A stretch of DNA of 64,000 nt from Methanobacteriota archaeon (lineage in GTDB: Archaea; Thermoplasmatota; Thermoplasmata; SG8-5; JAGLSY01), in assembly GCA_020697715.1 (NCBI GenBank), contig JAEHCO010000001.1, positions 778,149 to 842,148 on the forward strand. Reading direction: 5' to 3'. A program made the position numbers and the translations under genes. The notes under the pieces are model-generated. The model was not told where the DNA came from. It did not search any database and saw only the letters and a list, made by a program, of their open reading frames with translations. Shown one piece after another: positions 1 through 44,222 of the stretch (position 1 is the first letter of the stretch; every line of letters begins with the position of its first letter).

Positions 1-2082
1 CAGGACTATACATGGAGCTTCACCAGCGAGATGCAGTCCAATATCCAATCCTGGTTGGATGATGATTCAACCAATTATGGATGGCTGGTCCGAGGAGACG
101 AAACATTAGATGGTGTATCCAAGGCCAAGCATTTCTACACTCGAGAATATTCAGTTGCCGAGGATAGGCCACAATTGACCATCAGATACACTCCGGACAC
201 TTTGCCGGATCCAATAGGGTACAATGACACCTTCTGGTTATGTGGGGACGATGCTGGCGGAGGAATGACCTGTGTCTACAAAGTTGTTCCAGATGTAAGC
301 CTCAGCCTGGTAAATATGGGGAAGACCGTTGCCCAACCGTTGACCTCAATAGCCTGTGATGATGATGGGAACCCACTGGCTGTCGGCCACAATCAGGCAA
401 ATATGTTCTATTACGACATCACAGCGACCACCTGGTATGATGTTGGAGGGACCATGCTTACGGACTGTGATTTCGAAGGCGTGGATTATAATCCAAATGA
501 TGGAAGATTCTACGTAGCGGGATACAATGGCAACTGGGCATGGCCAGTGGTTTATTACACAGATCCAGGCCCATTGAACAATGGAACTTCAAGTGCCTAT
601 TACTACCAGTCTACTGATTTAACCAGCGATTGCTATCTCTATTCAATTGCCTGGAACGAGTTGTATGATTATGGATTGGCCGTGGGTGAAGAGGGGCATA
701 TCCTCAAGGTCTGGCCCTTCGATCATAATGGCGATGGCACAATGATGTACGAGGATATTTCCATTAATTTCGGGGATTACTACTACGATGTTTCGTGGGA
801 CACAGATGGATGGGATGAGGCAGGTATCGTTGGCAGTGACAGCATGGGCTGGGATGGTCTGTATTACAGATATTACCAGTCTAACCCGGAGATCATACTC
901 GGACATGACAGCAATGATGGAAGTTATTATCGTGCATGCGCGATGAAGCCCCCGTCAAGTCCAAAATGGCTGTTCATCCCAACATCCAGTGGAGGTGTCA
1001 AAGCCAATATCCAGGCTCTGGATCAAAGTTCCACAGTATCGGCCAGTTCCTTATTCCCCAACATATACTGGGCGGGTTTGAACGATACGGCCATGAACTC
1101 GAAGAACAATATGATGATCAATCCTGATTCGGACTTCTACATAACCTTCGAGGCGAATTATAGTGGAGGCTGGAACCAGATCCAAGCAGACATCCACATA
1201 TGGTATGATGATGGGTGGACGGGCACCAACTCACAATACCCTGCTGAAACACCAAATAATAGGAATTGGGCCATCAACCTGACCTATGATCCTAATGCTG
1301 GCTCCTATGTGGTGAATTACCCATCTACCCCTGTTTTGGAAGCCACCATTGGTGCGTATTCAGATACAATTGTTTCAGCGCATCCAGATCCAACTCAATC
1401 CATACATCGAGTTGAGTTGCCTATCCATTTTGGTGGCCAGATGTTCGCTGCAGATGGAAGTGGTTCCATGGGTGCAGGTCCAGATTATCACACTGACCCG
1501 AACATAGCACTTGATAGAGGAAACACTTGGGATTTCAATGTAACACTGTATGATAGTGCCAGTATCGCGAAGAAGAATAGTACATATGGTGAATTCGGAG
1601 TCAATCAGGCGATCTCCATATCTATTGCGGGAAATCCATCAGGAGATGCACCACCTGGTTCAAATGGCGTATACCTGGGAAGCAATGTCATAACATACTC
1701 GACCAACACGAACTACTGGGTCAATATGTCAATACCTGACTTGGACAAGGCAGGAGGAGGGTCATCTATTCCGGCAAGCAATCTGCAGGTACAGAACACC
1801 AATGGTCTTTCCACTCTGCCATCTGCTTCTGAGATCGGTGCCCAGACATACTTCTCTGGGGCAGATCAGAAGCTCTGTGTTTGGGGAATATCTGGACCTG
1901 CCGTGCCATTGGCCTCACCTGGAAATGGAACTACAGCCCATGGGCCGTGGGGTTCCAATTACAATAATTATGGTGACCCAGGAGGGACCACGAGCATTGA
2001 CTGGTACATAGATCTACCAAGCTCGCTACAATCGGGAATATACACGGCCACTATCACATATTCTATAGAGACGCAGGGGTGA
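1..2082 (+). CDS. Array gene 1 (5'-truncated): secreted beta-propeller surface protein with a DNRLRE-like domain and the shared C-terminal domain
   Basis: Frame is open from base 1 (QDYTWSFTSEMQ...). 'QSWLDDDSTNYGWLVRG...FYTREY...RPQLTIRY' is the end of a DNRLRE-type domain, followed by propeller-like blades, GNPSGDAPPG, NGTTAHGPWGS and C-terminal GIYTATITYSIE. Most divergent member. Confidence 0.85.
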   Translation, partial: QDYTWSFTSEMQSNIQSWLDDDSTNYGWLVRGDETLDGVSKAKHFYTREYSVAEDRPQLTIRYTPDTLPDPIGYNDTFWLCGDDAGGGMTCVYKVVPDVSLSLVNMGKTVAQPLTSIACDDDGNPLAVGHNQANMFYYDITATTWYDVGGTMLTDCDFEGVDYNPNDGRFYVAGYNGNWAWPVVYYTDPGPLNNGTSSAYYYQSTDLTSDCYLYSIAWNELYDYGLAVGEEGHILKVWPFDHNGDGTMMYEDISINFGDYYYDVSWDTDGWDEAGIVGSDSMGWDGLYYRYYQSNPEIILGHDSNDGSYYRACAMKPPSSPKWLFIPTSSGGVKANIQALDQSSTVSASSLFPNIYWAGLNDTAMNSKNNMMINPDSDFYITFEANYSGGWNQIQADIHIWYDDGWTGTNSQYPAETPNNRNWAINLTYDPNAGSYVVNYPSTPVLEATIGAYSDTIVSAHPDPTQSIHRVELPIHFGGQMFAADGSGSMGAGPDYHTDPNIALDRGNTWDFNVTLYDSASIAKKNSTYGEFGVNQAISISIAGNPSGDAPPGSNGVYLGSNVITYSTNTNYWVNMSIPDLDKAGGGSSIPASNLQVQNTNGLSTLPSASEIGAQTYFSGADQKLCVWGISGPAVPLASPGNGTTAHGPWGSNYNNYGDPGGTTSIDWYIDLPSSLQSGIYTATITYSIETQG

Positions 2083-2085
2083 TTG

Positions 2086-5000
2086 ATGAATAGAAAACTA
2101 GTATCCACATTGATAATCGCGATCCTCCTCAGCGTGAGCTTTGGCTATGGATTGGTCATGAATGCGGGAGCTAGTAATTTTGTCGAGGATATTGAGGGAC
2201 CTGATGCTACATTCAGAGATGTGATCTGGAATAATAATGGGACCAGCTCTTATGTGGTTGGTAATGATTCGGCCAATAATGGAGTGGTGTACACCTACAC
2301 GGCCGAGGACGAGACCTGGAATCCAATATCAAGTGTAGCTGGTGATAGCTACAATGCTATTTCCAGAACAGGATCCTACACATGGACGGATGATATTGAA
2401 AGTGGAAGTAATGGATGGACCACGGATAACTGGCAAAGCTCAACTCCAGCTCCAGCCCCAACCTCTTCCAACTCCTCTCTTGTGGGCGAGTGGAAGTTCG
2501 ACGAGGGTGTTGGTCAATACACTAACGATACTAGTGGAAGAGATAATGACGGGACACTTCTTGACTTTGATCCTGGAAATGCAGACCTGAACACACCTCC
2601 TGTGTGGACGCCAAATGGAGTATCTGGTAGTGCTCTGTATTTCGATGGCGTCGATGATTATGTGGACATCGATTATATTCCCAATACATTCAACAATCAC
2701 GACTTCTCAATTAGTGTATGGGTGCATCCAACTGCATCTATGTCGTATGGGGTCATATATGCTGTGGGAGAAACTGGTGGTGGCGCAGATAAGGCCATTG
2801 AATTCAAGCTGAGCAGTGGTGTCGTGGATATATGGCATTGGAGTGACAATTGGAATACGGGCTGTACGGTAAATCTGGGTGAATGGACTTACTTGACCTA
2901 CAATTATGTGAGCTCGACTAAGACCGGTTCCATCTATGTCGATGGCCAATTCGAGAACAGCCACATATTCAGTGGTTACCTTGATATCAATGATGATGGC
3001 TACATACCAAGCCAGATCGGCCTGGGATATCCCGGCAGGTATTATAAGGGCTACATAGACGAGGTTCAGATATACAACAAAACTTTGTCTTCGACAGAAA
3101 TATCTGATAAGTATAACATAACTGGCAACAAGGTTGGGGAATGGAAGCTGGATGAGGGGGCTGGGATCAATGCCGCAGACACAAGTCAACACAGCAATCT
3201 CGGAACGCTCACCAATATGGACGATACTAATTGGGTGGATGGAATATTTGGAAAGGCATTGCACTTTGATGGATCATCAGAATTTGTGGATTGTGGGAAC
3301 GATACCAGCCTGGATCTGCCTCATAGATTCTCCATCGAGGCCTGGGTGAAGCCAACCAGCGCAGGTACTGGAACATATCGTACAGTGGTCAGCAAAGCCA
3401 TTCAAAACACGGCTACTGGTATTTCATACGCCTATCTATTGAGCACGGATAATCGGGTCATCATCTATCTAGGGAATGGGGTGACCAGTGAGAACTATAT
3501 TAGTAATACTCCTTTGACACCCGATGTCTGGAATCATATTGCGATCGTGGCTACAGATACCGAACTCATATCCTATCTTAATGGACAGCCTGATGGAGCC
3601 AAGTTGACACATACCGTAACTCCACAGGTCATAGGTTCGAATGTCAGGATCGGAGTGAAAGCAATGGCTCCCACGCAATACTTTAATGGGGCCATCGATG
3701 AAGTGAATATTTGGAATTATTCACTTTCCCCCGATGATATCCTGGCCAATTACAATAATAGCTTGAGTAATGCCCTGGTAGGCGATTGGAAATTGGATGA
3801 GGGGTCTGGTTTCCTGGCAAGTGATGATACCCAGTACGAAAATGATGGTGCCCTCATTAACATGGAAGAGGCGGATTGGGTTGACGGAATATCTGGAAAA
3901 GCTCTGCTATTCGATGGCGTAGATGAATTTGTCAATTGTGGCAATGATTCGAGTTTGGACATGATCGATGAACTGACATTGGAAGCCTGGTTCAAGCCGC
4001 AAGCTGACGGATGGAAGTTCAAGAAGGCCCTGACCATCAGTGGCTCGGCATCCCCCCTTACCAATCACCAGGTGAAGATCGACCTTGATGCCGGGAACTT
4101 TGATTTCTCCAAAGCGGATCCCAATGGTGATGACATCAGATTCTACGATGATCTCGGAACAAAGTTAGATTACTGGATAGCCAATTGGGGAGCAGGGTTG
4201 GCAACGGTGTGGGTGAATGTCTCGAGCATACCCATTTCTGGCACGACCATCTATATGCATTACGGAAACTCGGTAGCTTCAAGTGAAAGCGACCACACCG
4301 CGGTCTTTGAACCATACACCATCACTTACAATATAGCCAGCAGTGCAGGTACCTTCGGCAATGTAGGCTCATCCATGTATCTGGGCAGTCCTGTGAATGC
4401 ACCTGGAGGGAAGGCCTTGAACATCGTGACACAAACAGGAATGAGTTTCAGTACCGCTTCATTCCCAATAGATCTTGAGCTTCAGATATGGGATGGGCTC
4501 AGTGATCCGTCCACACTCGAATACACATTCTCCCCACAAACCGTCTCCACTTTAGGATGGTTCTATTCACCGGTCGAGTTCCAAGAGGTTGATATTAACA
4601 ACGGATTATGGGTTGTCATACACAAACTGGCAGGCGGAACAGCATCAGGGGTTGACTGTGCAAGCACCATACCATCTGGTTTGGGAAGATATTCGGCCGA
4701 TGGCGCTTCTTGGAACTCATGGGGGGGCAATCCACCATCTGTATTCTTTAACGGATACATGCGAAATACTGCAATCCCGGAACCATCTATAATTGTTGGG
4801 GATGAAAATGTTGTCGGAATCAGCAAGCTAGACGCTTATGGCATGGGAGCAGATACTTCCTCAGTATATTCCAGTATAAACGGTGTGGTCATTGATTCAG
4901 CCATAGTAGCCGGTTGGAATCATGCTGCCTTGACCTATGACAGTGCCCTAGGCTCGAACCACATGAAACTGTACGTCAATGGTGCTCTTGCAGGACAAGC

Positions 5001-7470
5001 GAATAATGCAGGAGGGATCAGCTCGAACGGTAATGATCTAATAATAGGGGACAAAATTGCTTTCAATGGTACCATTGATGAGGTAAAGGTCTGGAGTCGT
5101 GCCCTTAATGATACTGAGATATCCGAACGCTATAGCAGTTTCAATGTGACGGCGTCATTAGGTTGGCAGGTCAATGATCCTTCCACTCTGCCTGTTCCGG
5201 GCTCTGGTATCGACCATGGAATCGCAGCCAGCGGGAACAATATATGGTGGTTTGGTGATAATGCAACAGGCAATTACGATACTGGAGAAAGGGTCACAGG
5301 AAGTCTTGTATCTCCAGAAACACATCTACCCGGTTCCTCTTTGACTGGTCAATTGGCGTTCAGCCACTGGTTCGATGTCGAGCCAGGCAATCCCGGTATG
5401 GATATGATGACCGTGTCCATAAAGAACACCACTGATGGTGTTTGGACAGAATTGAGATACTGGGACAGCGACAGTACCCCGATATCCAGTTGGGACAATG
5501 AGACAATAGACATCACTGGATGGTTGGGTAATGATGTCCAGGTGAGCTTCACATTTGATTCCGTGGATGAGAACAATAATGACTATGCGGGATGGCACAT
5601 CGATAATATCACTTTCCAGACCGATGGCGGCGCGTACATTGTCGTTGGTGATATCCCAACAGGAGCGGGCTATTCGGCCTATGTCATGGACGATCTGGGT
5701 AATATGAAAGATATCGATGGAATGAATACCATCGGGTTCAATGATGTGGCTGGCGATCCAGACTCAGCTTCTTTCGTAGCTGTAGGTGGCGATGTAGGAA
5801 TTTACTATGATGGCGGGAGTTGGAATGTATTAACTGGCATCATCGCAGGAGATTCCATGAATGGAGTGGAGTTCAATGGAACTCATTTCTTCATTGTGGG
5901 TCATGATTCGGGTGGCCTGGGCAAGTCATTTTACATAACACAAAGTGAGCTGGATTCAGGTCAGTTCGCCCTACATTCCATAGCCAATACCCCGTCCAAG
6001 AGATTGAATTCAATAGACTGGCATAATGATGTAGGTTCTGGCACCGGCCTGGTCTGTGCTGAAGGAGCCGTATACCTTCTGAGCAGTAGCTTCACATGGC
6101 AGGAGCTATCAGGTAATAATGCCACAGTGGATTACACTGCGTCAACTTGGAATGAGACAGGCATGAGGGCCATAATAGTCGGCAATACACCGACAAGAAG
6201 TGTGGCCTACGATCTCTACGATGGTAATGACTATATATCTAAAGTTCCAGACTATGATAATTTATTCCAGAACCACAAACTATACGGTGCCGAGTACCAG
6301 CCTATCACTGAAGGAGATACAGAGGTAATGCTGGTAGGAGCCAGTGCCTTCAAGATAATACCAAAGTTCTTCGACCAGACCACACAGGTATCGGTGGAGA
6401 CAGATCGCCCCTCATTATTCGACATCCAATTTTATAAGACAAGTGATGGTACAAAAGCATCCAGGCTCAATACCCAGATCAATGTTGAAGATACCTACAC
6501 ATTCTACACTGAAGTAAATTACAGCTCAGGTGGTAGTGATATGCTGTTCGATGGGATCAATAATACAGCAATGGACATAATCGCATGGTACGATGATGGT
6601 GGGGTCAATGAGTTCACTATTCCGGCTGAGGATGCAGAACACAGGAACAGGATGTTCAATGTCACATGGTATGAGGGAGATGGTGGAGGATCACCTCAGA
6701 ATGCCATAATGAAGTACCCGATAGCCAGCCCTGGAACCAATGAGTTCCAGGTGATGGGCTTTAACAGTGGTCCTGCGGGTGGAGATCACTGGTGGATTGA
6801 GATCGAGGTCTATATTGGATCCCAGGCCAATGCGGCAGATGGCATTGGATTTGGAAATGGTGTATCGGGCAATGAAAGTGATGCCATACAATCCTTCAAT
6901 GATGCGGATTCATGGAATTTCATGATAAATATGCATGATATTGGATCTCCAACAGCTTCGGATATCAGATACGAGGAGTTTGGATTGTTCAGATTCACGA
7001 ACATAACGGTATCTGGAAATCCTGGTGGAAGTGCACCTCCGGGCACGACCGATCATGCCCTTAGTGGTGGAAGCCTGATCACATACTCCACCAATGTGGA
7101 TCATTTTGTAAATGTGTCAATACCAGACATGCTAAGAGATGGAGGGGGAGGCAGCATACTGGCAACCAATGTCAATGTCTCGACGTCCAGTGTTCTTGCA
7201 AATAATTCAAATTCACAGATCGACAGCTCTTGGGGTCCTGCTGGAAGGTCCTTCTCAGGAGCCAATATGCCGCTTGGTGTTTGGGGCAATGCCAGCCAGG
7301 TGGATAAGGACATTGATGCCCCGAAAAATGGAACAACGGCCCACGGGCCATGGGGCTCGGATTTCAATGGTCATGGCGCCACTGTCGTACTTTGGTATGT
7401 CAGTGTGCCAGCCGCAACTATTGAAGGAGTTTACCGGGCCAAGGTGACATTCACAATAGAATACTATTGA
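2086..7470 (+). CDS. Array gene 2: secreted propeller protein with inserted MAM-like, 3x LamG and DUF2341 domains plus the shared C-terminal domain
   Basis: GGGGTGA SD before ATG 2086; signal peptide; three VG(E/D)WK(F/L)DEG LamG repeats; DFSKADPNGDDIRF (DUF2341-like); WWFG...YD...GWHIDNI (MAM/immune-inhibitor-A-like); ends GVYRAKVTFTIEYY. Confidence 0.9.
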   Translation: MNRKLVSTLIIAILLSVSFGYGLVMNAGASNFVEDIEGPDATFRDVIWNNNGTSSYVVGNDSANNGVVYTYTAEDETWNPISSVAGDSYNAISRTGSYTWTDDIESGSNGWTTDNWQSSTPAPAPTSSNSSLVGEWKFDEGVGQYTNDTSGRDNDGTLLDFDPGNADLNTPPVWTPNGVSGSALYFDGVDDYVDIDYIPNTFNNHDFSISVWVHPTASMSYGVIYAVGETGGGADKAIEFKLSSGVVDIWHWSDNWNTGCTVNLGEWTYLTYNYVSSTKTGSIYVDGQFENSHIFSGYLDINDDGYIPSQIGLGYPGRYYKGYIDEVQIYNKTLSSTEISDKYNITGNKVGEWKLDEGAGINAADTSQHSNLGTLTNMDDTNWVDGIFGKALHFDGSSEFVDCGNDTSLDLPHRFSIEAWVKPTSAGTGTYRTVVSKAIQNTATGISYAYLLSTDNRVIIYLGNGVTSENYISNTPLTPDVWNHIAIVATDTELISYLNGQPDGAKLTHTVTPQVIGSNVRIGVKAMAPTQYFNGAIDEVNIWNYSLSPDDILANYNNSLSNALVGDWKLDEGSGFLASDDTQYENDGALINMEEADWVDGISGKALLFDGVDEFVNCGNDSSLDMIDELTLEAWFKPQADGWKFKKALTISGSASPLTNHQVKIDLDAGNFDFSKADPNGDDIRFYDDLGTKLDYWIANWGAGLATVWVNVSSIPISGTTIYMHYGNSVASSESDHTAVFEPYTITYNIASSAGTFGNVGSSMYLGSPVNAPGGKALNIVTQTGMSFSTASFPIDLELQIWDGLSDPSTLEYTFSPQTVSTLGWFYSPVEFQEVDINNGLWVVIHKLAGGTASGVDCASTIPSGLGRYSADGASWNSWGGNPPSVFFNGYMRNTAIPEPSIIVGDENVVGISKLDAYGMGADTSSVYSSINGVVIDSAIVAGWNHAALTYDSALGSNHMKLYVNGALAGQANNAGGISSNGNDLIIGDKIAFNGTIDEVKVWSRALNDTEISERYSSFNVTASLGWQVNDPSTLPVPGSGIDHGIAASGNNIWWFGDNATGNYDTGERVTGSLVSPETHLPGSSLTGQLAFSHWFDVEPGNPGMDMMTVSIKNTTDGVWTELRYWDSDSTPISSWDNETIDITGWLGNDVQVSFTFDSVDENNNDYAGWHIDNITFQTDGGAYIVVGDIPTGAGYSAYVMDDLGNMKDIDGMNTIGFNDVAGDPDSASFVAVGGDVGIYYDGGSWNVLTGIIAGDSMNGVEFNGTHFFIVGHDSGGLGKSFYITQSELDSGQFALHSIANTPSKRLNSIDWHNDVGSGTGLVCAEGAVYLLSSSFTWQELSGNNATVDYTASTWNETGMRAIIVGNTPTRSVAYDLYDGNDYISKVPDYDNLFQNHKLYGAEYQPITEGDTEVMLVGASAFKIIPKFFDQTTQVSVETDRPSLFDIQFYKTSDGTKASRLNTQINVEDTYTFYTEVNYSSGGSDMLFDGINNTAMDIIAWYDDGGVNEFTIPAEDAEHRNRMFNVTWYEGDGGGSPQNAIMKYPIASPGTNEFQVMGFNSGPAGGDHWWIEIEVYIGSQANAADGIGFGNGVSGNESDAIQSFNDADSWNFMINMHDIGSPTASDIRYEEFGLFRFTNITVSGNPGGSAPPGTTDHALSGGSLITYSTNVDHFVNVSIPDMLRDGGGGSILATNVNVSTSSVLANNSNSQIDSSWGPAGRSFSGANMPLGVWGNASQVDKDIDAPKNGTTAHGPWGSDFNGHGATVVLWYVSVPAATIEGVYRAKVTFTIEYY

Positions 7471-7489
7471 AAAAGATGGAGGAATATAG

Positions 7490-9715
7490 ATGAACAGAAA
7501 GCTGGCCGTAATGGCGATAGTGACCGCGATGGTCTGTCTCAGCTTAGCGAGCGTGTCTCCCAGCGTAGGTGCAGGAGATGTAGGTGGCGATGTGGTGGAG
7601 AAACTGCTCTCAACACCAGCAGGCATGATATTCGAAGATATTGCATGGTCTGATGATGGGACGATAGCATTGGCCGTTGGTTATGATTCCAATGGTGATG
7701 GAAGGAATGCCGCTTGGTATTATCCTGATATCAATACATGGGCATCGATCAACAATTATCCATACCCTGCTGGCTATACTTTGAATGCTGTTGCATGGAG
7801 TACGCAGAACAGTATGTTCTACATGGCTGGAGAAACAGATGGTGGCAGCTTGATCACGTGCTATTACATAACCAAAGGTGGTGCTACAGTAACACGATTG
7901 CCATCTAGCGGAACCGAACCCACCTTGTCCATGAATGACATTGCCGTTGATGTTTATGGTAATGCACTTGCTGTCGGATCCGATGATAGGGTCTATTTCT
8001 TCCATAACAGTGGTGGAACCTGGTATCCTGTGAATGATGCAGATGATGCACTGCCCAATGCGGATTACTTTGGTGTTGATTATGAATCCACCTACCAGCG
8101 CTTCTACATTGTGGGAGAGGTACAGGGCGGAGGTGAGGCAATGATCACCTACACAAATATGATACCAAATGCTGGTGTTATTCCTGCCAGCCATATCAAT
8201 TATCTATCAGCACAATTGCCATTTCTTCCAGAGTTCTACTCCATCGCCTGGAACAATGATCCAAATATGCCTGCAGCTGATAAATACGCTCTAGTGGGTG
8301 GAACCGATATCCTGATAGGAATTGGCCTTGTAGAAGAAGGAATGCAGTTCTATCCAGGCACAGGTAGCTATCCAAATGGTGTCTATCATCACATAACTTG
8401 GGATGAATCCACATGGGAAGAGGCCTCATTGATATCCAATGTGGGCACTACCAGTTATCTTTATCAGTTCATCAACAGTTCGAAGAGCATTGTTCTTCTC
8501 GGTCAGAAGACTCAGCCAGACACTTACAATGCTGTGGATTACAAGCCTCCTGCGAGCCCCAGCTGGGGATTTGTAGTTGGAGCAACAGGCGGATACCAGA
8601 TCAATACCAATGCCTTCCATTCCGATACCACGATAACCATCAGCTCGGATATGCCACATATCTTCTCCATGGATATGTGGAAGCAGTCCGCTGGTATCGG
8701 CGGAGCCTCCAAATTCAATACCCAGGTCGATGTGAATACTGTATACACTTTCGCCATCGAGATAAATTACACGGTGGGTGGGGTCAATAAGATCTTTGAT
8801 GGAATAGATGATGTGCGTATTGTCCTGGAAGCCTATTATGACGAAGGTAGTGCCGGTAGTTTCGCCGAGCCTACCTGGGCTACCACTGATAATCGAACAA
8901 GGCAGTTCAGTTTCCTATGGGAAGAAGGTGTTGCCGGTGATTCCGTGAACATGGTCTATCCGATTGGCAGTCCTGGAACAGATGAGGTCCAGCTGGTTAA
9001 TGGATGGCGAGATCCTGTAGGCTATGGTGGAGATGGATTCACTTTCAAATTATACTTCAATGTGTCATTCGGAGCCCAAATGCGGGCTGCCGATGGCAAT
9101 GGATTCGGCAATGGTGCCTCATCAGAACCATGGGATGAGGCAGCGTCCTTTGATGATCTCAATTCCTGGAATATAGGTATGATGATCTATGATGGCGCTT
9201 ACCCTGGTGCGGCCAATGCCTCATATGAGGAGTTCGGCGTGTTCCAGTATTCGAACATCACAGTATCTGGAAGTCCCGCAGGCAATGCGCCACCTGGAAC
9301 AGTAGACCAGGTTCTCGGTAATCCAAGCCAGATCACAGTAACTTCCAATATTCCTTATTATGTCAATGTGTCAGTGCCAGACCTTGCAAAGATCGGAGGC
9401 GGTCTACCTATATCTGCTAATAATGTGAAGGTCAGGTCGACTAGCACATTGGCATCTGATACTAACAGTATGATCAGAAATATGCAGGCATTCCCTGCAG
9501 CAAATGTGAACATCAGTGTATGGGGAAACACCAGCCAAGTTTTCAGCAACTGGATGGTGGCAGCACCGATGAATGGAACGACGGCCCACGGGCCATGGGG
9601 TTCTGATTACAATGGTTATGCGACCACGGACCTACTCTGGTATGTGACCATTCCTGGTGCCACTGCCGAGGGGATCTACCAGGCGACCATCACCTTCAGG
9701 ATCGGATATTATTAG
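7490..9715 (+). CDS. Array gene 3: minimal member (propeller + middle + C-terminal domain, no insert), 741 aa
   Basis: GGAGG SD; signal peptide; repeated DIAW/AVAW/SIAW blades; ends GIYQATITFRIGYY. Confidence 0.9.
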   Translation: MNRKLAVMAIVTAMVCLSLASVSPSVGAGDVGGDVVEKLLSTPAGMIFEDIAWSDDGTIALAVGYDSNGDGRNAAWYYPDINTWASINNYPYPAGYTLNAVAWSTQNSMFYMAGETDGGSLITCYYITKGGATVTRLPSSGTEPTLSMNDIAVDVYGNALAVGSDDRVYFFHNSGGTWYPVNDADDALPNADYFGVDYESTYQRFYIVGEVQGGGEAMITYTNMIPNAGVIPASHINYLSAQLPFLPEFYSIAWNNDPNMPAADKYALVGGTDILIGIGLVEEGMQFYPGTGSYPNGVYHHITWDESTWEEASLISNVGTTSYLYQFINSSKSIVLLGQKTQPDTYNAVDYKPPASPSWGFVVGATGGYQINTNAFHSDTTITISSDMPHIFSMDMWKQSAGIGGASKFNTQVDVNTVYTFAIEINYTVGGVNKIFDGIDDVRIVLEAYYDEGSAGSFAEPTWATTDNRTRQFSFLWEEGVAGDSVNMVYPIGSPGTDEVQLVNGWRDPVGYGGDGFTFKLYFNVSFGAQMRAADGNGFGNGASSEPWDEAASFDDLNSWNIGMMIYDGAYPGAANASYEEFGVFQYSNITVSGSPAGNAPPGTVDQVLGNPSQITVTSNIPYYVNVSVPDLAKIGGGLPISANNVKVRSTSTLASDTNSMIRNMQAFPAANVNISVWGNTSQVFSNWMVAAPMNGTTAHGPWGSDYNGYATTDLLWYVTIPGATAEGIYQATITFRIGYY

Positions 9716-9721
9716 GGGGAT

Positions 9722-12418: not shown

Positions 12419-12419
12419 A

Positions 12420-17060: not shown

Positions 17061-17071
17061 GAGGAGATGGA

Positions 17072-19753: not shown

Positions 19754-19767
19754 GAGGGGGTGAAAGA

Positions 19768-22458: not shown

Positions 22459-22477
22459 GGTGGATGATGGAGGTGGA

Positions 22478-25117
22478 ATGATGAGTGGAAATAGAGAAAT
22501 GAAAAAGATACTGGCCATGGCTTTAGTTAGCATCATGGTCTGCGCAAGCATAGTGATAGTTTTACCGAATAACACGGTAATGGCAGAGGATTCTGCAAAA
22601 CCTTTTGTGGATTTGAACACGGGCTATCCCCTTCCGAGTTTTAATTTGGACCAAGAACAGAGTATGGAAGGAACGATCGTTACTATGTCTGGGTTCTGGA
22701 TGGCCCAAACTTTCACGGCAGGAATAACAGAGAATTTAGCAATAGCTAGTATACATTTTGCCTCATGGCCTGATGTCGAAGATATATCTGTGTACATCTA
22801 TGATACAAGCGGCGGTCTGCCAAATACCGTAATGGCTACAGAAACATTAGCAGGACCAACTGTTCTGGACAATGAATGGTTCAATGTTACCTTTGACCCG
22901 CAGCCATCATTGATAATAGGTGTGCAGTATGCAGTGGTATTCAAGAGTTCTGGCTCCGGCGGAAGTCCGGATTTGATGAACATGGATGTTTATGCAGGTG
23001 GGAGTGCCTACCAGAGCTTTGACGGAAATACATGGATGGACGTTAACAACCCTCTTTGGGACTTCACATTCAGAACATATTACGCTTCATCTGAATCCGG
23101 CTTGACCAATATTGCCTGGCATGAATCTGGGGACTATGCATTGGCCGTCTCAGGAGCAGATGATGGGAACATATACAGATATCAAAGATCTAACAACACC
23201 TGGTACTTGGCCTTCAATACTAATCCTAGTGGAACCAATAATGATATCATTTATGATGCAACTTGGGAGAATTTCTTCATTGTCGGAGCTATAGGTGGAT
23301 TCACGCATTCATACACTTGGAACGAGACATTTGGTCTCGTGGATCTGGGATCTACATTTTCTGATGGGCCGTACGAAGGTGTTGTGGCTTGTTCAGCTCC
23401 CTATTATTTCCTGGCAGTAGGGCATGATCTTGCTAATGTGGGCAAATTCGCATGGTACAATAAATCAAGTGCCAGTTATGAGGAATATTTCACCCCCTCT
23501 GATGAATGGCTGTACGATGTGACCTATTCTCCAACCGAAGGGAATTACTATGCAGTTGGAGACCTCGGTGGAACTGGTATTGTTTATCAATTTGATTATC
23601 CTGGCGACTCAACCGGATTACGGATTAGCGATGCCTGGAATGATACTTTCAGCCCTCTGTATTCCGTGGATTGGAGCCCCTTAGGTGGTGGGAATAATTA
23701 TGGACTCATGGCCGGATCAAATAGTCAAGGCAATGGCAATGTTCACAGGCTCAATCCTGGACCATCATATGATTCGATAATGAGTACCAGCGATACAATC
23801 TGGGATATTGATTGGCATCCTAATGGAGAAATGGCCATTCTAGTGGGTGAGACCAATGTTGGAAACGGTGCAATATATAGCCATTACCCTCAAAACCTAC
23901 AAAGTAAGTTAAGCAATGATCCAGATTATCCTTCACCCTTTTATGGTATTGCGATGAAAGGTTATTCCAGCCCCAGCTCGGGATTGATAATCGGAAATTC
24001 TGGCTCAGTAGGGTTTTACCCGTCTGCCATTGATTCAGGAACTACGATAACCGTGAACGCGGCCTTCCCTCACAACTTCGACATAGACATGTGGAAGACC
24101 AGTGACGGGATCGGAGGAAGCTCCAAGCTCAATACACAGGTCGATGTGGAGGAGACATACACCTTCATGGCCGAGGTCAATTACTCTGTCAGTGGCACTG
24201 ACCAATTCTATGCTGATGGTGTAAATGATGTGAGGATCGAGCTGTCGGCCTTCTTCGATGAGGGAGCCACACCGGGAGTGTTCCCAGCAACGGATGACCA
24301 GCACAGGACAAGAGCCTTTGTCGCTCTCTGGGAAGAAGGAAATGTGCCTTTCACGGATACGGCCAGCATGCAATATCCTATCGGTAGTCCCGGAACAGAT
24401 GAGTTCACCCTGGACAGCTTCTGGTTGGATTCTTCAGCACCTGGAGATCACTATTACATTTACATCAACATAACCTTTGGACCCCAAACATGGGCGGCCA
24501 GTGGTCCCTTTGGCGGAGCTTCTACAGATATCAATGACGATGTCCAATCATTGGATGATTCTAATACCTGGGACTTCGAGATGAGGATATATGACTCTAA
24601 TTATGGTGGAGCAACCAATTCCACATATGAGGAATTCGGCATTTTCCAGCACACGAACATAACCGTATCTGGAAATCCTGGCGGCAATGCGCCACCAGGG
24701 TCAAATGCGCAGTTGGGACCGAACAGCCAGATCGCAGTTTCTTCCAATATCGATTATTACGTCAATGTCTCGATCCCGGATCTGGCCAAAGTTGGTGGAG
24801 GGCTGCCAATACTGGCAACCAATGTGGCAGTGAACATAACAAGCCCATTTGCCAACAATACGAATTCGATGATAAATGGAACTGCAATGAACTTCCCTGG
24901 AGCCAATCAGACATTGAGCATATGGGGCAACACGAGCCAGGCCTTTGGAGACTGGGTTGTTGCAGCACCATTGAACAGTACGACGGCTCATGGATCGCAA
25001 GGAGCGGACTTCCAGAGCATTGGAACGACCGACTTAGAATGGTGGATCGATGTGCCAGGCGGTACAGCTGAAGGCGTGTACCAGGCATCTGTGACATTCA
25101 GGATAGGGTACTACTAG
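22478..25117 (+). CDS. Array gene 8: member with AQTF-type insert
   Basis: GGAGGTGG SD (start could be 22478, 22481 or 22499); AEDSAK; MAQTFTAG...DFTFRTYY insert; ends GVYQASVTFRIGYY. Confidence 0.88.
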   Translation: MMSGNREMKKILAMALVSIMVCASIVIVLPNNTVMAEDSAKPFVDLNTGYPLPSFNLDQEQSMEGTIVTMSGFWMAQTFTAGITENLAIASIHFASWPDVEDISVYIYDTSGGLPNTVMATETLAGPTVLDNEWFNVTFDPQPSLIIGVQYAVVFKSSGSGGSPDLMNMDVYAGGSAYQSFDGNTWMDVNNPLWDFTFRTYYASSESGLTNIAWHESGDYALAVSGADDGNIYRYQRSNNTWYLAFNTNPSGTNNDIIYDATWENFFIVGAIGGFTHSYTWNETFGLVDLGSTFSDGPYEGVVACSAPYYFLAVGHDLANVGKFAWYNKSSASYEEYFTPSDEWLYDVTYSPTEGNYYAVGDLGGTGIVYQFDYPGDSTGLRISDAWNDTFSPLYSVDWSPLGGGNNYGLMAGSNSQGNGNVHRLNPGPSYDSIMSTSDTIWDIDWHPNGEMAILVGETNVGNGAIYSHYPQNLQSKLSNDPDYPSPFYGIAMKGYSSPSSGLIIGNSGSVGFYPSAIDSGTTITVNAAFPHNFDIDMWKTSDGIGGSSKLNTQVDVEETYTFMAEVNYSVSGTDQFYADGVNDVRIELSAFFDEGATPGVFPATDDQHRTRAFVALWEEGNVPFTDTASMQYPIGSPGTDEFTLDSFWLDSSAPGDHYYIYINITFGPQTWAASGPFGGASTDINDDVQSLDDSNTWDFEMRIYDSNYGGATNSTYEEFGIFQHTNITVSGNPGGNAPPGSNAQLGPNSQIAVSSNIDYYVNVSIPDLAKVGGGLPILATNVAVNITSPFANNTNSMINGTAMNFPGANQTLSIWGNTSQAFGDWVVAAPLNSTTAHGSQGADFQSIGTTDLEWWIDVPGGTAEGVYQASVTFRIGYY
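24761..25075 (+). repeat. 315-bp direct repeat, copy 2 (C-terminal domain of gene 8)
   Basis: Matches 22102-22416 with 4 mismatches. Confidence 0.9.
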
Positions 25118-25172
25118 GAGATATACAAATCCAAAAAATCATGAATAATGAGGTGAAAAAACAAAAAAGGAG

Positions 25173-27848
25173 ATGAGAAAAATGATAGAAATGAAAAAGA
25201 TATTGGCCATAGTGATCACGATTGCTATGGCAAGTGCTAGTTTAGTGATAGTTCTACCGAACAACACGGTAGTTGCTGAGGATTCTGCAAGGCCACTTGC
25301 TGGTCTGTCCGATGGATTGCCAGCAACAATGAATGTGGTGGATCAAAGAGATGAGGGCATAGGGTCATTCTTTACTGTAGATGATACTAACCAATTAGCC
25401 CAGAGGTTCACATGCGGTGTGGATGGAGACCTTACAAGTATAGACCTACACGTGTCTGGATCCTTTGATAATGGTGGCAACTTGTTTTATCAGATCCAGG
25501 ATGGTAGCGGTCCTTTACCTGGAACTCCACTCGATGTGGCTGAAATGATACCGATCAGTTTTCTAGGGGGAGGATGGAATAATCTTGCATTACCACCAAC
25601 AGATCTGTCTGAAGGTATGACATATGCTATTGTGATCTGGGCCTCCTCTACTAATTCGGTCGACATATCGATCGATACAGGAGCTCTATACGGTGGCTTG
25701 GGTTCCATGTCTATGAACGGTGGAGCATCCTTCAGTCCACTGGGAGGGCAGGATGTTACTTTCAGAACCTACATGGAGATCCCTTTCACTATGAGCAAGG
25801 TGGCATGGCATTCAAGTGGAGACTATGCTCTAGGTATAGCAAGTGGCACAGACCATGTTTACAAATATACACGAAATTCCATGGCCTGGGCCAGTGAGTA
25901 CGACCTTGCTAACGATATGATCTTCAATGATATAGAATACAGTGAGCATTTTGGTCTTTTCTACATCGTGGGAGATGATATTGGAAATTCATGGGCCAAA
26001 GCCTGGAGCTATTATGAGCCAACACAGAGCTTATTGGACCTTAATGCACCTCAACTTGCCTCAACAGACTTCAACTGCCTTTGTCTGGCAGATGAGGGTG
26101 GTACAACTGATTACGCCTTCTTGGCCTTCGGATTTGACTATGGTCAATGGTACGATGAGGGCAATGATATCTGGGTCGAAGTGACCGGAGGATTGAGCGC
26201 AGCTGTGGATGTGATGGATGTAACCTGGGACCATGGATATGGCTCTATATCATATTGGGCTGTTGGAGATAGTGCTGGTTCTGGATACTTGTATTATTTC
26301 ACCGGCGCGGGTGATACTGCAGCAGCACAATACAATCCTTCAGTATGGGGTGCAGTTGGATCATTCAGTGGTATTGAATGGCAGCCTGCTGGAGCCTCGG
26401 ATCATGCCGTGATAGTCGGTGAGAATTTAGGAGATGGAAATGTCTGGAGCTGGGATGGTACGACTGCAGAAGCTTTGTTAAACACCACTGATACCTATAC
26501 TGATGTTTCCTGGCACCCTGATGGAAGCATGGCCATGGCCGTTGGTTACACAGCATCAGATGATGGTGTGATCTACCACTATATTCCAGATAATGGCGCA
26601 ATGATCAAAATGAGCACAGATGGTGATCATGGAAAGCTATATGGTGTTGATGTCAAAGGCTGGACCAGTCCAAGCTCTGGATTGATAGTTGGATCCAGCG
26701 GAGCAGTTGGTTCTTACCTTTCAGCATCAGACGGAGATACGACATTGACCGTCAATGCCGCTTTCCCGCACATATACGATATCGACATGTGGAAAACCAG
26801 CGACGCTGGTGAGACATCCACACTTAACTCAAGAGTGGATGTTGAAGATACCTACACCTTCTACACCGAAGTGAACTACACGATAGGAGGTACAGATCAG
26901 TTTTTCGATGGTACCAATAACACCTTCGTGGACCTTACAGCGTGGTTCGATGATGGAAATGATGCAACAAGCATGACGCCATCAGCAAGTGACGATTCCC
27001 ACAGAACTAGGAAGTTCGTGGCCAGGCTTTACGAGACAACCAGCTTGGTCGCAAGCGGTGTTACAGGATCGGTCATCTATCCAGACACGACAACCAATGA
27101 AATCTTGTTTGATAGTGTCGGATGCAGCGGACCATACGGTGCTGATGACAGGTACGGTGTTTGGATCAATGTAACATTCGGAGCTCAGATGAGAGCTGGC
27201 GATGGCCAGAATTATGCAAATGGAGCTGCAGGTAGTATATTCGACAGCAACCAGGCATTCGATGATGATGACAGCTGGAACTTCCAGATGCAGATATTCG
27301 ATAATGACTTCCCTGGAGCGACGAACACCACATACGAGGAGTTCGGAATATTCATGGCCACTAACATCACAGTGTCCAATAATCCAAGTGTCAATGCTCC
27401 TCCAGGAAGTGTGAGCCAGGCATTTGATTCCAACAGTCTGATCACTTATTCGGCAAATATTCCATACCACGTGAATGTGTCAATTGAGAGATTGAACTTG
27501 ACAACCGATGATACCAAATTCATACCCGCCAGTAATGTCAATGCAAGTCTTGTCGACATGTACCCAGTTGGATTCGATCTTGAACCATACACTGAGATAA
27601 ATTCAACGTGGGGAGCTGCTGGAAGACCTTTCGCAGCACCCGGCGCAGAGCGTATGGTATGGGGCAATACAAGCCAGGCAACCGAGCTGGTACCAGCTCC
27701 AAACAATGGAACTGCTGCACATGGTCCTGTATACTCGAACTTTGACGGATATGGAGCCACGGAGGTCGCATGGTGGATAAGCGTGCCAGGAGCTACATCT
27801 GAAGGTATTTATCAGGCGTCGATAACCTTCAAGATCGGGTACTATTGA
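25173..27848 (+). CDS. Array gene 9: member with AQTF-type insert
   Basis: Signal peptide-AEDSAR; LAQRFTCG...DVTFRTYM insert; ends GIYQASITFKIGYY. Start may be 25182 or 25191. Confidence 0.88.
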   Translation: MRKMIEMKKILAIVITIAMASASLVIVLPNNTVVAEDSARPLAGLSDGLPATMNVVDQRDEGIGSFFTVDDTNQLAQRFTCGVDGDLTSIDLHVSGSFDNGGNLFYQIQDGSGPLPGTPLDVAEMIPISFLGGGWNNLALPPTDLSEGMTYAIVIWASSTNSVDISIDTGALYGGLGSMSMNGGASFSPLGGQDVTFRTYMEIPFTMSKVAWHSSGDYALGIASGTDHVYKYTRNSMAWASEYDLANDMIFNDIEYSEHFGLFYIVGDDIGNSWAKAWSYYEPTQSLLDLNAPQLASTDFNCLCLADEGGTTDYAFLAFGFDYGQWYDEGNDIWVEVTGGLSAAVDVMDVTWDHGYGSISYWAVGDSAGSGYLYYFTGAGDTAAAQYNPSVWGAVGSFSGIEWQPAGASDHAVIVGENLGDGNVWSWDGTTAEALLNTTDTYTDVSWHPDGSMAMAVGYTASDDGVIYHYIPDNGAMIKMSTDGDHGKLYGVDVKGWTSPSSGLIVGSSGAVGSYLSASDGDTTLTVNAAFPHIYDIDMWKTSDAGETSTLNSRVDVEDTYTFYTEVNYTIGGTDQFFDGTNNTFVDLTAWFDDGNDATSMTPSASDDSHRTRKFVARLYETTSLVASGVTGSVIYPDTTTNEILFDSVGCSGPYGADDRYGVWINVTFGAQMRAGDGQNYANGAAGSIFDSNQAFDDDDSWNFQMQIFDNDFPGATNTTYEEFGIFMATNITVSNNPSVNAPPGSVSQAFDSNSLITYSANIPYHVNVSIERLNLTTDDTKFIPASNVNASLVDMYPVGFDLEPYTEINSTWGAAGRPFAAPGAERMVWGNTSQATELVPAPNNGTAAHGPVYSNFDGYGATEVAWWISVPGATSEGIYQASITFKIGYY
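27090..27846 (+). repeat. Near-identical 3' region shared by genes 9 and 10 (partner ~29399-30155)
   Basis: Long identical DNA runs, e.g. CAACCAATGAAATCTTGTTTGATAGTGTCGGATGCAGCGGACCATACGGTGCTGATGACAGG, in both genes; proteins nearly identical here. Confidence 0.85.
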
Positions 27849-27931
27849 ATGATATGAGATAAAATTCATGAAATCAAGAAAAAATGAAAAAATGAGGAAA
27901 GGAGGAAAAATGTAAAAAAGGAGATGAGAAA

Positions 27932-30157
27932 ATGAACAAAATAAACAAAATACTGGCCATGGCGGTAGTAATAGCCATGGCATGCGCTAGTATTATAATC
28001 GTGTCGCCGAACAATACGGTGATGGCAGAGGATTCAGCGAAGCCTTTAGCAGAGTTGAATGCGGGATATCCGGCAGGCATAGATAAAGTTGCCTGGCACT
28101 CGGATGGAAGCTTTGCACTTGGTATACAGAGTGGTACAGAACACATTTACAAGTACACAAGACAGACAATGAGCTGGGCCAGTGATTATAACCTTCCCGT
28201 TGGCGATACCTTCATTGATATCAAGTACAGTGAGTTCTTCGATATGTTCTATATTGTTGGAACGCAAAGTGGCCAGCAAGAAGCATGGAGCTATGATTAC
28301 AGCATCCAGAATTTGCTTGACCTGAACTCACCCAAGACAACCATGGGAGTCTATAATGGACTATGCCTGGCTGATGAAGGTGGAACACAACCCTATGCTT
28401 TCCTTGCAGTGGGCTATGCTGATACAAGCAAAGGATGTGCAGCATGGTTCGATGAAGCGGTTGATACTTGGACCGATGTGACCACTGGATTGACTTTGAA
28501 CCACGAACTTTATGATGTAACATGGGACCATGGCTTTACTGCAAATCCATATTGGATCGTCGGAGAGGATATGGGCACGGGGGCTGGAGTTATCTATTTC
28601 ATGAACAGTCCGGGTAATAACAAGGCCAACATCTTTGACACATCTGGCTGGGGTGTTACACCCGGTGCACTGAATGCCATTGACTGGAGGCCTTCAGGCG
28701 GAGCAGACCATGCTATAATGGCTGGAGGCAATTACGGTAACGGAAATGTCTGGCTTTTTGATGGTTTCAATGGAGAAGCTATACTCGATAACACAGATTC
28801 CTACACAGACGCATGCTGGCACCCTGATGGGGGCATGGCCATGGTTGTTGGCTACAATGTTGCTACTGATGGGATAATTCAGCATTATATCCCGGACAAC
28901 GAAGATACCCTCACGAAGATGAGCACAGATGGTGATTATGGACCATTCTATGGCGTTGATGTAAAAGCCTGGTCGAGTCCAAGTTCTGGTTTGATAGTCG
29001 GAGCTACTGGTGCAGTTGGATCATATCTCTCAGCATCTGATGGGAGCACGACATTGACAGTCAATGCCGCTTTCCCGCACATATACGATATAGACATGTG
29101 GAAGACCAGCGATGCTGGTGAAACCTCTACACTAAATGCACGTGTAGATGTTGAAGAGACTTACACCTTCTACACCGAGGTGAACTACACGATCGGTGGA
29201 ACAGATATGTTATTCGATGGTATCAATAACACCTTTGTGGACCTGACAGCGTGGTTCGATGATGGAAATGATGCTACAAGTATGACTCCATCAGCAAGTG
29301 ATGATTCGCACAGAACTAGAAAATTCGTGGCAAGATTCTACGAAACGACCAGTCTGGTTGCAAGTGGTGCAACCGGAGAGATAATATACCCAGATTCAAC
29401 AACCAATGAAATCTTGTTTGATAGTGTCGGATGCAGCGGACCATACGGTGCTGATGACAGGTACGGTGTTTGGATCAATGTCACCTTCGGCCCTCAGATG
29501 AGAGCTGGCGATGGCCAGAATTTTGCAAATGGAGCTGCAGGTAGTATATTCGACAGCAATCAGGCATTCGATGATGATGACAGCTGGAACTTCCAGATGG
29601 AGGTATATGATAATGATTATCCCGGAGCGACAAACACCACATACGAGGAGTTCGGAATATTCATGGCCACGAACATCACGGTGTCCAATAATCCAAGTGT
29701 CAATGCCCCTCCAGGAAGTGTGAGCCAGGCATTTGATTCCAACAGTTTGATCACGTATTCGGCCAATATTCCGTACCACGTGAATGTGTCAATTGAGAGA
29801 TTGAACTTGACAACCGATGATACCAAATTCATACCCGCCAGTAATGTCAATGCAAGTCTTGTCGACATGTACCCAGTTGGATTCGATCTTGAACCATACA
29901 CAGAAATAAATGCAACATGGGGAGCTGCTGGAAGACCATTTGCAGCAGCCAATACAGAGCGTATGGTATGGGGCAATACAAGCCAGGCAACCGAGCTGGT
30001 ACCAGCTCCGAACAATGGAACTGCCGCACATGGTCCTGTATACTCGAACTTTAACGGATATGGAGCAACTGAGGTCGCATGGTGGATCAATGTACCAGGA
30101 GCGACAGCTGAGGGAATATACCAGGCCACGATCACTTTCAAGATCGGGTACTATTAG
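27932..30157 (+). CDS. Array gene 10: minimal member (no insert), close paralog of gene 9
   Basis: AEDSAKPLAELNAGYP runs directly into AGIDKVAWH; seven blade-like repeats; ends GIYQATITFKIGYY. Confidence 0.9.
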   Translation: MNKINKILAMAVVIAMACASIIIVSPNNTVMAEDSAKPLAELNAGYPAGIDKVAWHSDGSFALGIQSGTEHIYKYTRQTMSWASDYNLPVGDTFIDIKYSEFFDMFYIVGTQSGQQEAWSYDYSIQNLLDLNSPKTTMGVYNGLCLADEGGTQPYAFLAVGYADTSKGCAAWFDEAVDTWTDVTTGLTLNHELYDVTWDHGFTANPYWIVGEDMGTGAGVIYFMNSPGNNKANIFDTSGWGVTPGALNAIDWRPSGGADHAIMAGGNYGNGNVWLFDGFNGEAILDNTDSYTDACWHPDGGMAMVVGYNVATDGIIQHYIPDNEDTLTKMSTDGDYGPFYGVDVKAWSSPSSGLIVGATGAVGSYLSASDGSTTLTVNAAFPHIYDIDMWKTSDAGETSTLNARVDVEETYTFYTEVNYTIGGTDMLFDGINNTFVDLTAWFDDGNDATSMTPSASDDSHRTRKFVARFYETTSLVASGATGEIIYPDSTTNEILFDSVGCSGPYGADDRYGVWINVTFGPQMRAGDGQNFANGAAGSIFDSNQAFDDDDSWNFQMEVYDNDYPGATNTTYEEFGIFMATNITVSNNPSVNAPPGSVSQAFDSNSLITYSANIPYHVNVSIERLNLTTDDTKFIPASNVNASLVDMYPVGFDLEPYTEINATWGAAGRPFAAANTERMVWGNTSQATELVPAPNNGTAAHGPVYSNFNGYGATEVAWWINVPGATAEGIYQATITFKIGYY

Positions 30158-30200
30158 AAATGAGCTCCCCCAAAGCTAAATAACTGAAATGACCAAAAAT

Positions 30201-30255
30201 AGGGGGCGGTAGAGGATTCTCTCCTTTCCACTACCGTCCTCCCCTTTCCTTTTAT
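30201..30255 (+). terminator. Hairpin + T-rich terminator closing the array
   Basis: GGGGGCGGTAG (30202-30212) pairs with CTACCGTCCTC (30231-30241), followed by TTTCCTTTT. Confidence 0.7.
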
Positions 30256-30378
30256 GTTCCTATTATTTTCATAATTAATAGATATATGATATAGATAATG
30301 ATGAATTCCTATAATCAATAATTAGGCACAAAGATTTATTAATGGGTAGGGGTTATAATCAACTATCAAGGTAATATT

Positions 30379-43985: not shown

Positions 43986-44222
43986 TCACTTCATCTTGAT
44001 AGTTTCTTGCTCCACATAATTGCCTGGCTTGACAAGCACGGTAGAGAGATAGCCCGCGAGATTGGTCCCTCCGACTATGATCAGGTATAGGCCAACCAGC
44101 AGTTCCAGGTCCAAATATCCTGTCAGAATGATTATGCCGAAAGCTATGGTCAGAATAGCTGATGCTATGCCGGTTATCCCGAGTTTTCCAAGGATCTTTT
44201 TTGATATATTTCCATTGGTCAT
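43986..44222 (-). CDS. Small two-TM membrane protein (DUF3096-like)
   Basis: GAGGAA SD; AILTIAFGIIIL...LLVGLYLIIVG hydrophobic hairpin. Confidence 0.6.
   Translation of the reverse strand: MTNGNISKKILGKLGITGIASAILTIAFGIIILTGYLDLELLVGLYLIIVGGTNLAGYLSTVLVKPGNYVEQETIKMK

Follow-up and report, generated by a model that had tools for sequence, protein, structure and literature searches.

What is encoded by a run of ten related genes that takes up the first 30 kb of an archaeal sequence, and what might their products do? The question is raised by a 64,000-nucleotide stretch of a Thermoplasmata genome (G000:C11:778149-842148), hereafter the window. A preliminary description saw in the run an operon of secreted, glycosylated paralogs built on one chassis, which would assemble into a filament, sheath or lattice and display different ligand-binding heads, and it proposed an adhesin or filament system. 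We find a protein family that is new but whose general kind is familiar, that of the expanded modular surface or exoprotein repertoires. The word system overstates the case, since what is present is one protein family specific to a lineage and not a machine of many components. The reading that we favour, if tentatively, is that of a lineage-specific family of Sec-exported, N-glycosylated display proteins of the cell surface.

An array of paralogs with a common body

The ten genes do run consecutively on the + strand, and the array continues past the left edge of the window as proposed, with three complete genes and the 5′ part of gene 1 in the 20 kb read upstream. In all it comprises 13 same-strand paralogs in 43.8 kb (G000:C11:764496-808305), ten of them in the window. 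The chassis, which is the conserved C-terminal half of these proteins, gave 16 matches in a search of the whole genome. Two extra copies lie off the array, a 728-amino acid (aa) gene on the - strand of the window and a divergent 932-aa gene on contig C22. The 15 family genes occupy 48.3 kb, or 2.28% of the 2.12-Mb genome.

The relationship between the genes is far beyond chance. The chassis alignment of 15 copies has a mean column identity of 55% with 34 invariant columns, an alignment of eight sequences gives 49%, and the motifs originally quoted for the middle and C-terminal domains are present in the alignments. The common body consists of an N-terminal hydrophobic segment of the Sec type, a seven-bladed WD40/PD40-like propeller, an Ig-like β-sandwich and a C-terminal β-sandwich.

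This arrangement is best seen in the AlphaFold2 model of gene 10 (m87819b6d0671; 40-sequence alignment), with a mean predicted local distance difference test (pLDDT) score of 86.3 and a predicted template modelling (pTM) score of 0.51, a value that leaves the relative placement of the domains uncertain. Residues 2-24 form a helix, a low-confidence linker at residues 368-376 follows the propeller, and the two sandwiches, modelled at residues 383-576 and 580-741, complete the chain (Table 1). The propeller has seven four-stranded blades that superpose on known ones, as expected of the WD40/PD40 type. It superposes on the seven-bladed WD40 propeller of β′-COP (8szx) with a template modelling score (TMt) of 0.81 and a root-mean-square deviation of 3.5 Å, and on Gβ with a TMt of ∼0.67. 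The Pfam WD40 profile is sub-threshold, and is seen in only one of the ten window proteins (E 1.8e-4). The estimate of about seven blades per gene is confirmed for gene 10 only, by its structural model. The paralog on contig C22 (G000:C22:72984-75782; L002 6985-9783, - strand) is without a propeller. Its order is a hydrophobic N-terminus, the chassis at aa ∼199-551, another Ig-like domain at aa ∼556-764 and a C-terminal module of the WTVDW type that is described below.

All 15 copies contain a single hydrophobic segment, which is N-terminal. In nearly all of them it is followed by small residues at -3/-1, judged by eye (VMA, VVA, AVA, VSA, VDA, ITA, VGA and similar), and it is because of these that we read the segment as a probable cleavable Sec signal peptide. 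The sequence AEDS follows the segment in five copies and AENS in one, exactly as the preliminary description had it. Its statement that the proteins lack a C-terminal transmembrane helix holds for 15 of 15 copies, in none of which is there a second hydrophobic 19-mer. It was also right about the lipobox, in so far as can be judged by eye: a cysteine is present in some h-regions, but without [GAS] regularly preceding it at -1, and gene 9 lacks cysteine altogether. A type IV pilin-like (class III) signal peptide was considered and rejected, since inspection of the 15 N-termini reveals no G/A before the hydrophobic segment, the small residues coming after it as in Sec signal peptides. There are two archaeosortase-like genes in the genome.

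Might the segment instead remain in place as an anchor? The proteins would then be type II membrane proteins, with the propeller close to the membrane and the C-terminal domains distal. The segments are long, at 18-25 residues, with a mean hydropathy in the best window of 2.0-3.0, and in the gene 10 model residues 2-24 are one helix, as such an anchor would be. The small residues at -3/-1 suggest cleavage by signal peptidase I, however, and the placing of variable heads by the membrane with an invariant, sequon-rich end far from it would be an odd design. We consider an uncleaved anchor very unlikely.

Variable heads nested in a constant frame

The members differ in their heads, and the idea of different, putatively ligand-binding heads on one chassis is borne out by lectin- and adhesin-type Pfam domains in paralogs and relatives. 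Heads in the same genome comprise three Laminin_G_3 domains with or without DUF2341 (genes 2 and 5), MAM with Kelch, NosD/β-helix, and an unassigned domain of ∼150 aa (genes 4 and 6-9). We surveyed 32 long relatives, chosen as 31 of the 150 profile-search rows listed together with the protein P0011. NosD/β-helix heads are present in 11 of the 32, LamG_3 in nine, Kelch in seven and GLUG in four, while FG-GAP, DUF2341, DUF11, Big_5, PQQ with PKD, a GH130-like segment (in P0104) and Amidase_3 are found once each; six have no recognisable head domain. Many members of the family are headless, with lengths of ∼720-745 aa.

P0011, a member of 964 aa from another genome ('Thermoplasmata archaeon'), is the carrier of the Amidase_3 peptidoglycan amidase head (E 3.5e-49). 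The host lineage is not known to make peptidoglycan, which suggests that bacterial walls or debris are what this head acts on.

The heads have not merely been added at the N-terminus. Three long members were compared, genes 2 and 5 and a 1219-aa upstream gene, and in these the heads interrupt the propeller. In the 1219-aa paralog, residues 1-107 correspond to residues 6-104 of gene 10, that is to the signal peptide and first blade; ∼620 inserted residues containing Kelch and MAM come next, and the alignment resumes with residues 262-741 of gene 10. The nesting in gene 2 is alike. The ∼150-aa heads lie between the conserved segment after the signal peptide and blade 1.

Sequons and gene conversion

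Sequons for N-glycosylation are distributed with a marked polarity. The Ig-like and C-terminal domains contain 152 in 5498 aa, or 2.76 per 100 aa compared with 1.41 expected from composition, whereas propellers and heads contain 72 in 9550 aa, 0.75 per 100 aa against 1.05 expected. The genome median is 0.39 for open reading frames (ORFs) of ≥200 aa, in a crude ORF set (n=1173). In gene 10 there are 11 sequons after residue 417 and none in the propeller, and six of the 11 are kept in 23-31 of 40 aligned members; the conserved sites include NYT, NVS, NTS and NGT. The sequons had been described as dense and conserved in position; this conservation is seen for the six of gene 10, and they are dense in the two C-terminal domains, though not elsewhere.

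A homolog of the oligosaccharyltransferase AglB/STT3 is encoded in the genome. The only such match (G000:C22:103026-104210, - strand) lies inside an open frame of 2419 aa. A typical archaeal AglB is far shorter, and the frame could be a fusion with large extracellular domains.

Gene conversion homogenises the C-terminal domain between neighbouring genes. Over the last ∼120 codons the DNA identity between genes 7 and 8 is 94-98%, and third codon positions are identical at a frequency of 0.87-0.97 there compared with 0.27-0.45 elsewhere. For genes 9 and 10 the corresponding values are 0.60-0.93 across the chassis and 0.38-0.53 in the propeller. The chassis of gene 10 is 93% identical to that of its neighbour gene 9, and 87% at best to proteins of other genomes, which points to duplication or conversion since the species split.

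Distribution and novelty of the family

How widespread is the family? It is small, lineage-specific and concentrated in its own order of the Thermoplasmata. There are 42 matches among 5.8 billion clustered proteins, of which 11 carry the NCBI name 'Thermoplasmata archaeon' (ten as hypothetical protein, one as N-acetylmuramoyl-L-alanine amidase) and one further match has the JGI label 'hypothetical protein' only. A profile search among 1.84 billion gave 277 representatives at E ≤ 1e-3 and 128 at E ≤ 1e-30. Within the same class 31 of the 61 genomes searched have a match. They include 4/4 in the organism's own taxonomic family and 2/2, 2/2 and 12/13 in three other families of its order; five other families of the class are represented with 3/3, 3/3, 1/1, 2/2 and 1/3 genomes, and twelve further families have none in the genomes searched. 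There are 15-20 matches per genome in the organism's own genus, and arrays of up to 8 genes in another family. Of 300 other genomes sampled evenly from the phylum, only 12, from two families, have a match at E ≤ 1e-10, and the matching proteins are short (355-412 aa), corresponding roughly to the Ig-like domain.

The chassis was said not to be a described family, and this is upheld. Pfam and NCBIfam give no match on the Ig-like and C-terminal domains, and what matches there are fall on the heads; those of NCBIfam are TafC-like only, on the LamG heads and below the cut-off. A permissive Pfam scan (E ≤ 5) of the 15 chassis copies found nothing consistent, the best family appearing in two members at E 0.09. 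The chassis profile has no match at E ≤ 1 among PDB sequences. The best scores in the ESM Atlas (0.91-0.92) are to unnamed clusters only, and the nearest named one, WxL cell-wall-binding, is at chance level (0.76). Literature searches at the level of titles and abstracts gave no description of the family or of an envelope role for it in the lineages that carry it.

Display, assembly or release

How might the proteins work? In the reading that we favour, the sequon-rich Ig-like and C-terminal domains would form a glycan-coated stalk and retention module. Once the signal peptide is cleaved, the stalk would keep the protein attached to the envelope with no need of a membrane anchor, probably because it binds non-covalently to some component that the members have in common as a partner there. 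Propeller and heads, which are poor in sequons, would be turned outward, where they may bind polymers, particles or other cells. Diversity would come from lectin- and adhesin-type modules nested within the first blades of the propeller or ahead of them, with gene conversion between neighbours keeping the C-terminal module uniform while the heads diverge.

Several points weigh against this. Non-covalent retention and release into the medium account equally well for the absence of a membrane anchor after the predicted cleavage, and the proteins could simply be released. The length of the h-regions makes the uncleaved anchor discussed above possible. The Ig-like and C-terminal pair is not always terminal, being near the N-terminus in some relatives (P0106, P0104 and P0050) and followed by other domains in the C22 paralog. 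Finally, the C-terminal domain may have a lectin or anchor fold already known that escaped the fold searches, in which this domain was not queried alone.

Could the chassis assemble? In such a scheme it would self-assemble, and an S-layer-like lattice, sheath or filament displaying the heads would arise by co-polymerisation of the paralogs. That no membrane anchor is left after cleavage would be understandable in that case, as would the very large genomic investment and the widespread headless forms of ∼740 aa. The likeness that co-assembly would require of the C-terminal domains is maintained by gene conversion, and the density of sequons is typical of archaeal envelope glycoproteins. Yet the C-terminal sandwich of gene 10 is modelled complete, with a pLDDT of ∼90 in its last strands, so that neither an open groove nor a spare donor strand can be seen. 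A single dominant S-layer gene is also quite unlike the thirteen paralogs, which differ stably from one another. The upstream contig had been pointed to as a place for chaperone, peptidase or anchor genes, and none is conserved beside the arrays of this genome or of the five others examined. Prediction of a homodimer of gene 10 residues 377-741 (two copies, 40-row alignment, no controls) scored 0.00 in both runs, which speaks neither for nor against binding. The original proposal of a filament, sheath or lattice is unsupported. With no conserved accessory genes, no signal peptides of the pilin type, and no donor-strand features to be seen in the model, surface display is favoured over assembly, which we regard as unlikely.

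A broader possibility is that the Ig-like and C-terminal pair is a new archaeal module for envelope assembly or attachment, by which at least 13 paralogs would co-assemble or dock on a common envelope glycan or protein as a mosaic glycoprotein coat. We think this decidedly doubtful.

Release is the other alternative to be weighed. The proteins would be free exoproteins, for the most part soluble agents of binding and scavenging with a few enzymatic heads, acting on detrital polymers or bacteria. The signal peptide looks cleavable and all kinds of anchor are lacking; a secreted bacterial sialidase has its domains in a similar order, with propeller, Ig-like domain and β-sandwich; and the Amidase_3 head of P0011 and the GH130-like segment of P0104 would suit such a role. 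Secreted archaeal peptidoglycan hydrolases are prominent in the Thermoplasmata's phylum Thermoplasmatota, according to PMC12352652. But most heads are non-catalytic binding modules, with 6 of the 32 long relatives and all headless forms having no recognisable enzyme, and the WD40-like propeller has no sialidase or BNR signature above the Pfam cut-offs. The strict conservation and homogenisation of a non-catalytic C-terminal half of 370 aa is hard to explain for free monomers. Release is improbable in our estimation, and retention at the surface by the C-terminal half is the interpretation that we tentatively prefer.

Other secreted proteins of the genome

We surveyed the C-termini of large exported proteins using a crude ORF set, in which 114 large ORFs have an N-terminal hydrophobic segment. 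About 21 of the 114 end in a transmembrane helix and basic tail; the chassis family never does.

A second C-terminal module without a transmembrane helix, of ∼110 aa (AGWNLVGYP...GxGYWV...WTVDW) and unrelated to the chassis, ends 28 of the 1173 crude ORFs. Its carriers include the 1011-aa NosD/β-helix protein of the window (47733-50768, - strand) and the chassis paralog on contig C22, and at least eight genes are clustered at G000:C11:898803-933889. It has no match in Pfam or NCBIfam, and may be another module for surface retention or sorting. The presence of at least two recurrent C-terminal modules of this kind on large exported proteins makes a role in retention or sorting, to our mind, more plausible than chance.

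Gene organisation and surroundings

The genes of the array are closely packed (Table 1). With the most plausible ATG starts the gaps in the window are 0-40 nucleotides (nt), the exceptions being the 55 nt before gene 9 and 83 nt before gene 10 that had been remarked on before, and upstream of the window they are 222 nt, 79 nt and a 4-nt overlap. Shine-Dalgarno motifs of the GGAGG, GGGGGT or GGTGA type precede the starts, again as described, and a TATA-like AT-rich stretch lies upstream of the first gene of the array. The single terminator reported at the end of the array has some substance: RNA folding gives a hairpin of 14 pairs followed by a U-rich tract after the last gene (ΔG -25.6 kcal/mol, z -2.1). 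A scan for terminators of the bacterial type found none on the + strand.

Table 1. Family genes, domains of gene 10 and the array end, by position in the window
Feature	Position	Strand	Description
Gene 1 (4th array gene)	1..2082, 5′ open	+	3′ part of ∼1395-aa paralog, start at L001:17895; diverged chassis, match E 3.4e-33
Gene 2	2083..7470, ATG 2086	+	1795 aa; signal peptide, first blade, nested Laminin_G_3 ×3 and DUF2341, remaining propeller, chassis
Gene 3	7490..9715	+	741 aa, headless; signal peptide, propeller, Ig-like domain, C-terminal domain
Gene 4	9722..12418	+	898 aa; ∼150-aa head inserted ahead of blade 1
Gene 5	12399..17060, likely ATG 12420	+	∼1546 aa; Laminin_G_3 ×3 head nested in propeller
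Gene 6	17072..19753	+	893 aa; chassis and ∼150-aa head
Gene 7	19750..22458, likely ATG 19768	+	∼896 aa; conversion tract shared with gene 8, last ∼130 codons, ∼22063-22455
Gene 8	22445..25117, ATG 22478-22499	+	∼872-879 aa; conversion tract ∼24722-25114
Gene 9	25173..27848	+	891 aa; chassis 93% identical to that of gene 10
Gene 10	27932..30157	+	741 aa, headless; AlphaFold2 model, fold searches
Gene 10 hydrophobic N-terminus	aa 1-33	+	From model
Gene 10 propeller	aa 39-365 (28046-29026)	+	From model
Gene 10 Ig-like domain	aa 383-576 (29078-29659)	+	From model
Gene 10 C-terminal β-sandwich	aa 577-741 (29660-30154)	+	From model
Terminator-like hairpin and U-rich tract	30202..30275 (hairpin 30202-30241)	+	From RNA folding
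Lone paralog	37556..39742	-	728 aa, headless; off-array amid housekeeping genes; chassis match E 3.9e-72

The genes that flank the array in the window are archaeal housekeeping genes, among them those for LonB, RadB-like and isopentenyl-phosphate-kinase-like proteins, the halves of transketolase, gyrase, MetRS and MtrA/MtrH-like proteins. Arrays in this genome are flanked by genes for a PLD/LTD/PKD protein, rubrerythrin, ABCE1 and LonB, and those of the five other genomes (G012, G007, G005, G041 and G032) by genes for TPR proteins, an MBL-fold protein, DUF92, phosphoglycerate mutase and a PAPS-reductase-like protein, and by unannotated ORFs. No flanking gene is common to this genome and those five.

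The PLD/LTD/PKD protein (G000:C11:761511-764279; L001 3363-6131, - strand) is encoded by the divergently transcribed neighbour of the array. It has 922 aa with a Lamin-tail, two PLD-like domains and PKD, and ends in a C-terminal transmembrane helix and basic tail; the domains suggest an extracellular enzyme anchored in the membrane, of the nuclease or phospholipase-D-like type.

Two further features lie elsewhere in the window. A C/D-box small RNA at 44313-44367 (+ strand) matches Rfam sR2 with 42.5 bits against a gathering score of 42, and overlaps the 5′ end of a 132-aa ORF (43986-44384, - strand) that has no Pfam match. At 60567-63064 (- strand) there is a cluster of MtrA-like, MtrH-like and cobalamin-independent-synthase-like (Meth_synt_2) genes. 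No further methanogenesis gene was found among the 26 ORFs of the window scanned, which suggests, on gene content, that the cluster is a methyltransferase system unrelated to methanogenesis.

Significance

The family is uncharacterised, takes up more than 2% of a 2.1-Mb genome and has 15-20 matches in each genome of its genus. This investment and expansion make it a leading candidate for the chief means by which these cells meet the particles, polymers and bacteria around them. It also shows cleanly, in a natural case, how domains can be nested in a propeller while gene conversion keeps one end of a protein constant as the other diversifies. Should the C-terminal pair prove to be a module of retention or assembly, it would represent a new principle of archaeal surface attachment and a possible scaffold for display. 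Together with the WTVDW-type module it would point to an undescribed mode of archaeal surface attachment that is independent of membrane anchors. If the proteins are merely released, this is an ordinary though large family of exoproteins.

Comparison with known systems

Subunits of fibres built by donor-strand exchange are small single domains with an N-terminal donor strand, as described in PMC11494351. The present proteins have 728-1795 aa in at least three domains, and their C-terminal sandwich, which comes last in order, is modelled complete, so we have rejected this assignment. Fold scores against pilins and against TLP-1a/b, TasA, archaeal bundling pili and cannulae do not stand out from the generic β-sandwich background, and Pfam Peptidase_M73/TasA has no match in the window proteins or the 15 chassis copies. 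Archaeal S-layer anchoring by a C-terminal transmembrane helix, PGF-CTERM or an anchor subunit was likewise set aside, as there is no C-terminal hydrophobic segment in the 15 copies and no conserved anchor neighbour.

Foldseek searches show a resemblance of layout to integrin α and to a large sialidase (E ∼1e-12), with template modelling scores of only ∼0.3. The 68-kDa sialidase of Micromonospora viridifaciens, the top match (2ber, E 8.8e-13), has the same order of propeller, Ig-like domain and C-terminal β-sandwich, at a TMq of 0.29. Its propeller is catalytic with six blades, and its C-terminal domain is a galactose-binding jelly-roll; the present propeller is seven-bladed and WD40-like. Membership of the exo-sialidases (GH33) is rejected, since no Sialidase/BNR match in Pfam exceeds the cut-off on the chassis and the propeller fits WD40 best; a LamG-like 'Sialidase, N-terminal domain' match is sub-threshold and confined to the heads of genes 2 and 5. 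The integrin α ectodomain (E 2e-12 to 1e-9) also has a seven-bladed propeller followed by the thigh and calf β-sandwiches, and its propeller tolerates an inserted domain. It differs in that the present family has neither a C-terminal transmembrane helix nor a β-subunit partner. We have rejected membership of the integrin α-like/FG-GAP group, as the ten window proteins have no FG-GAP match, and in the relative P0043 just one such repeat occurs, within the head.

Methanogens such as Methanobrevibacter have large repertoires of adhesin-like proteins with β-helix, Ig-like or lectin modules. These are likewise large, lineage-specific expansions of secreted proteins, built on a different and unrelated chassis. 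The closest functional analogy is with the Cwp proteins of Clostridioides difficile and the SLH and S-layer-associated families of the Bacillota. The present family has no CWB2 or SLH match in Pfam, its host is an archaeon without peptidoglycan, the shared part is far larger, comprising a propeller and two β-sandwiches, and its heads, as seen in three long members, sit within the propeller. Those families too consist of many paralogs, partly clustered in one locus, in which one module of non-covalent retention is combined with differing functional domains, and it is in this union of a common module with varied domains that the likeness lies.

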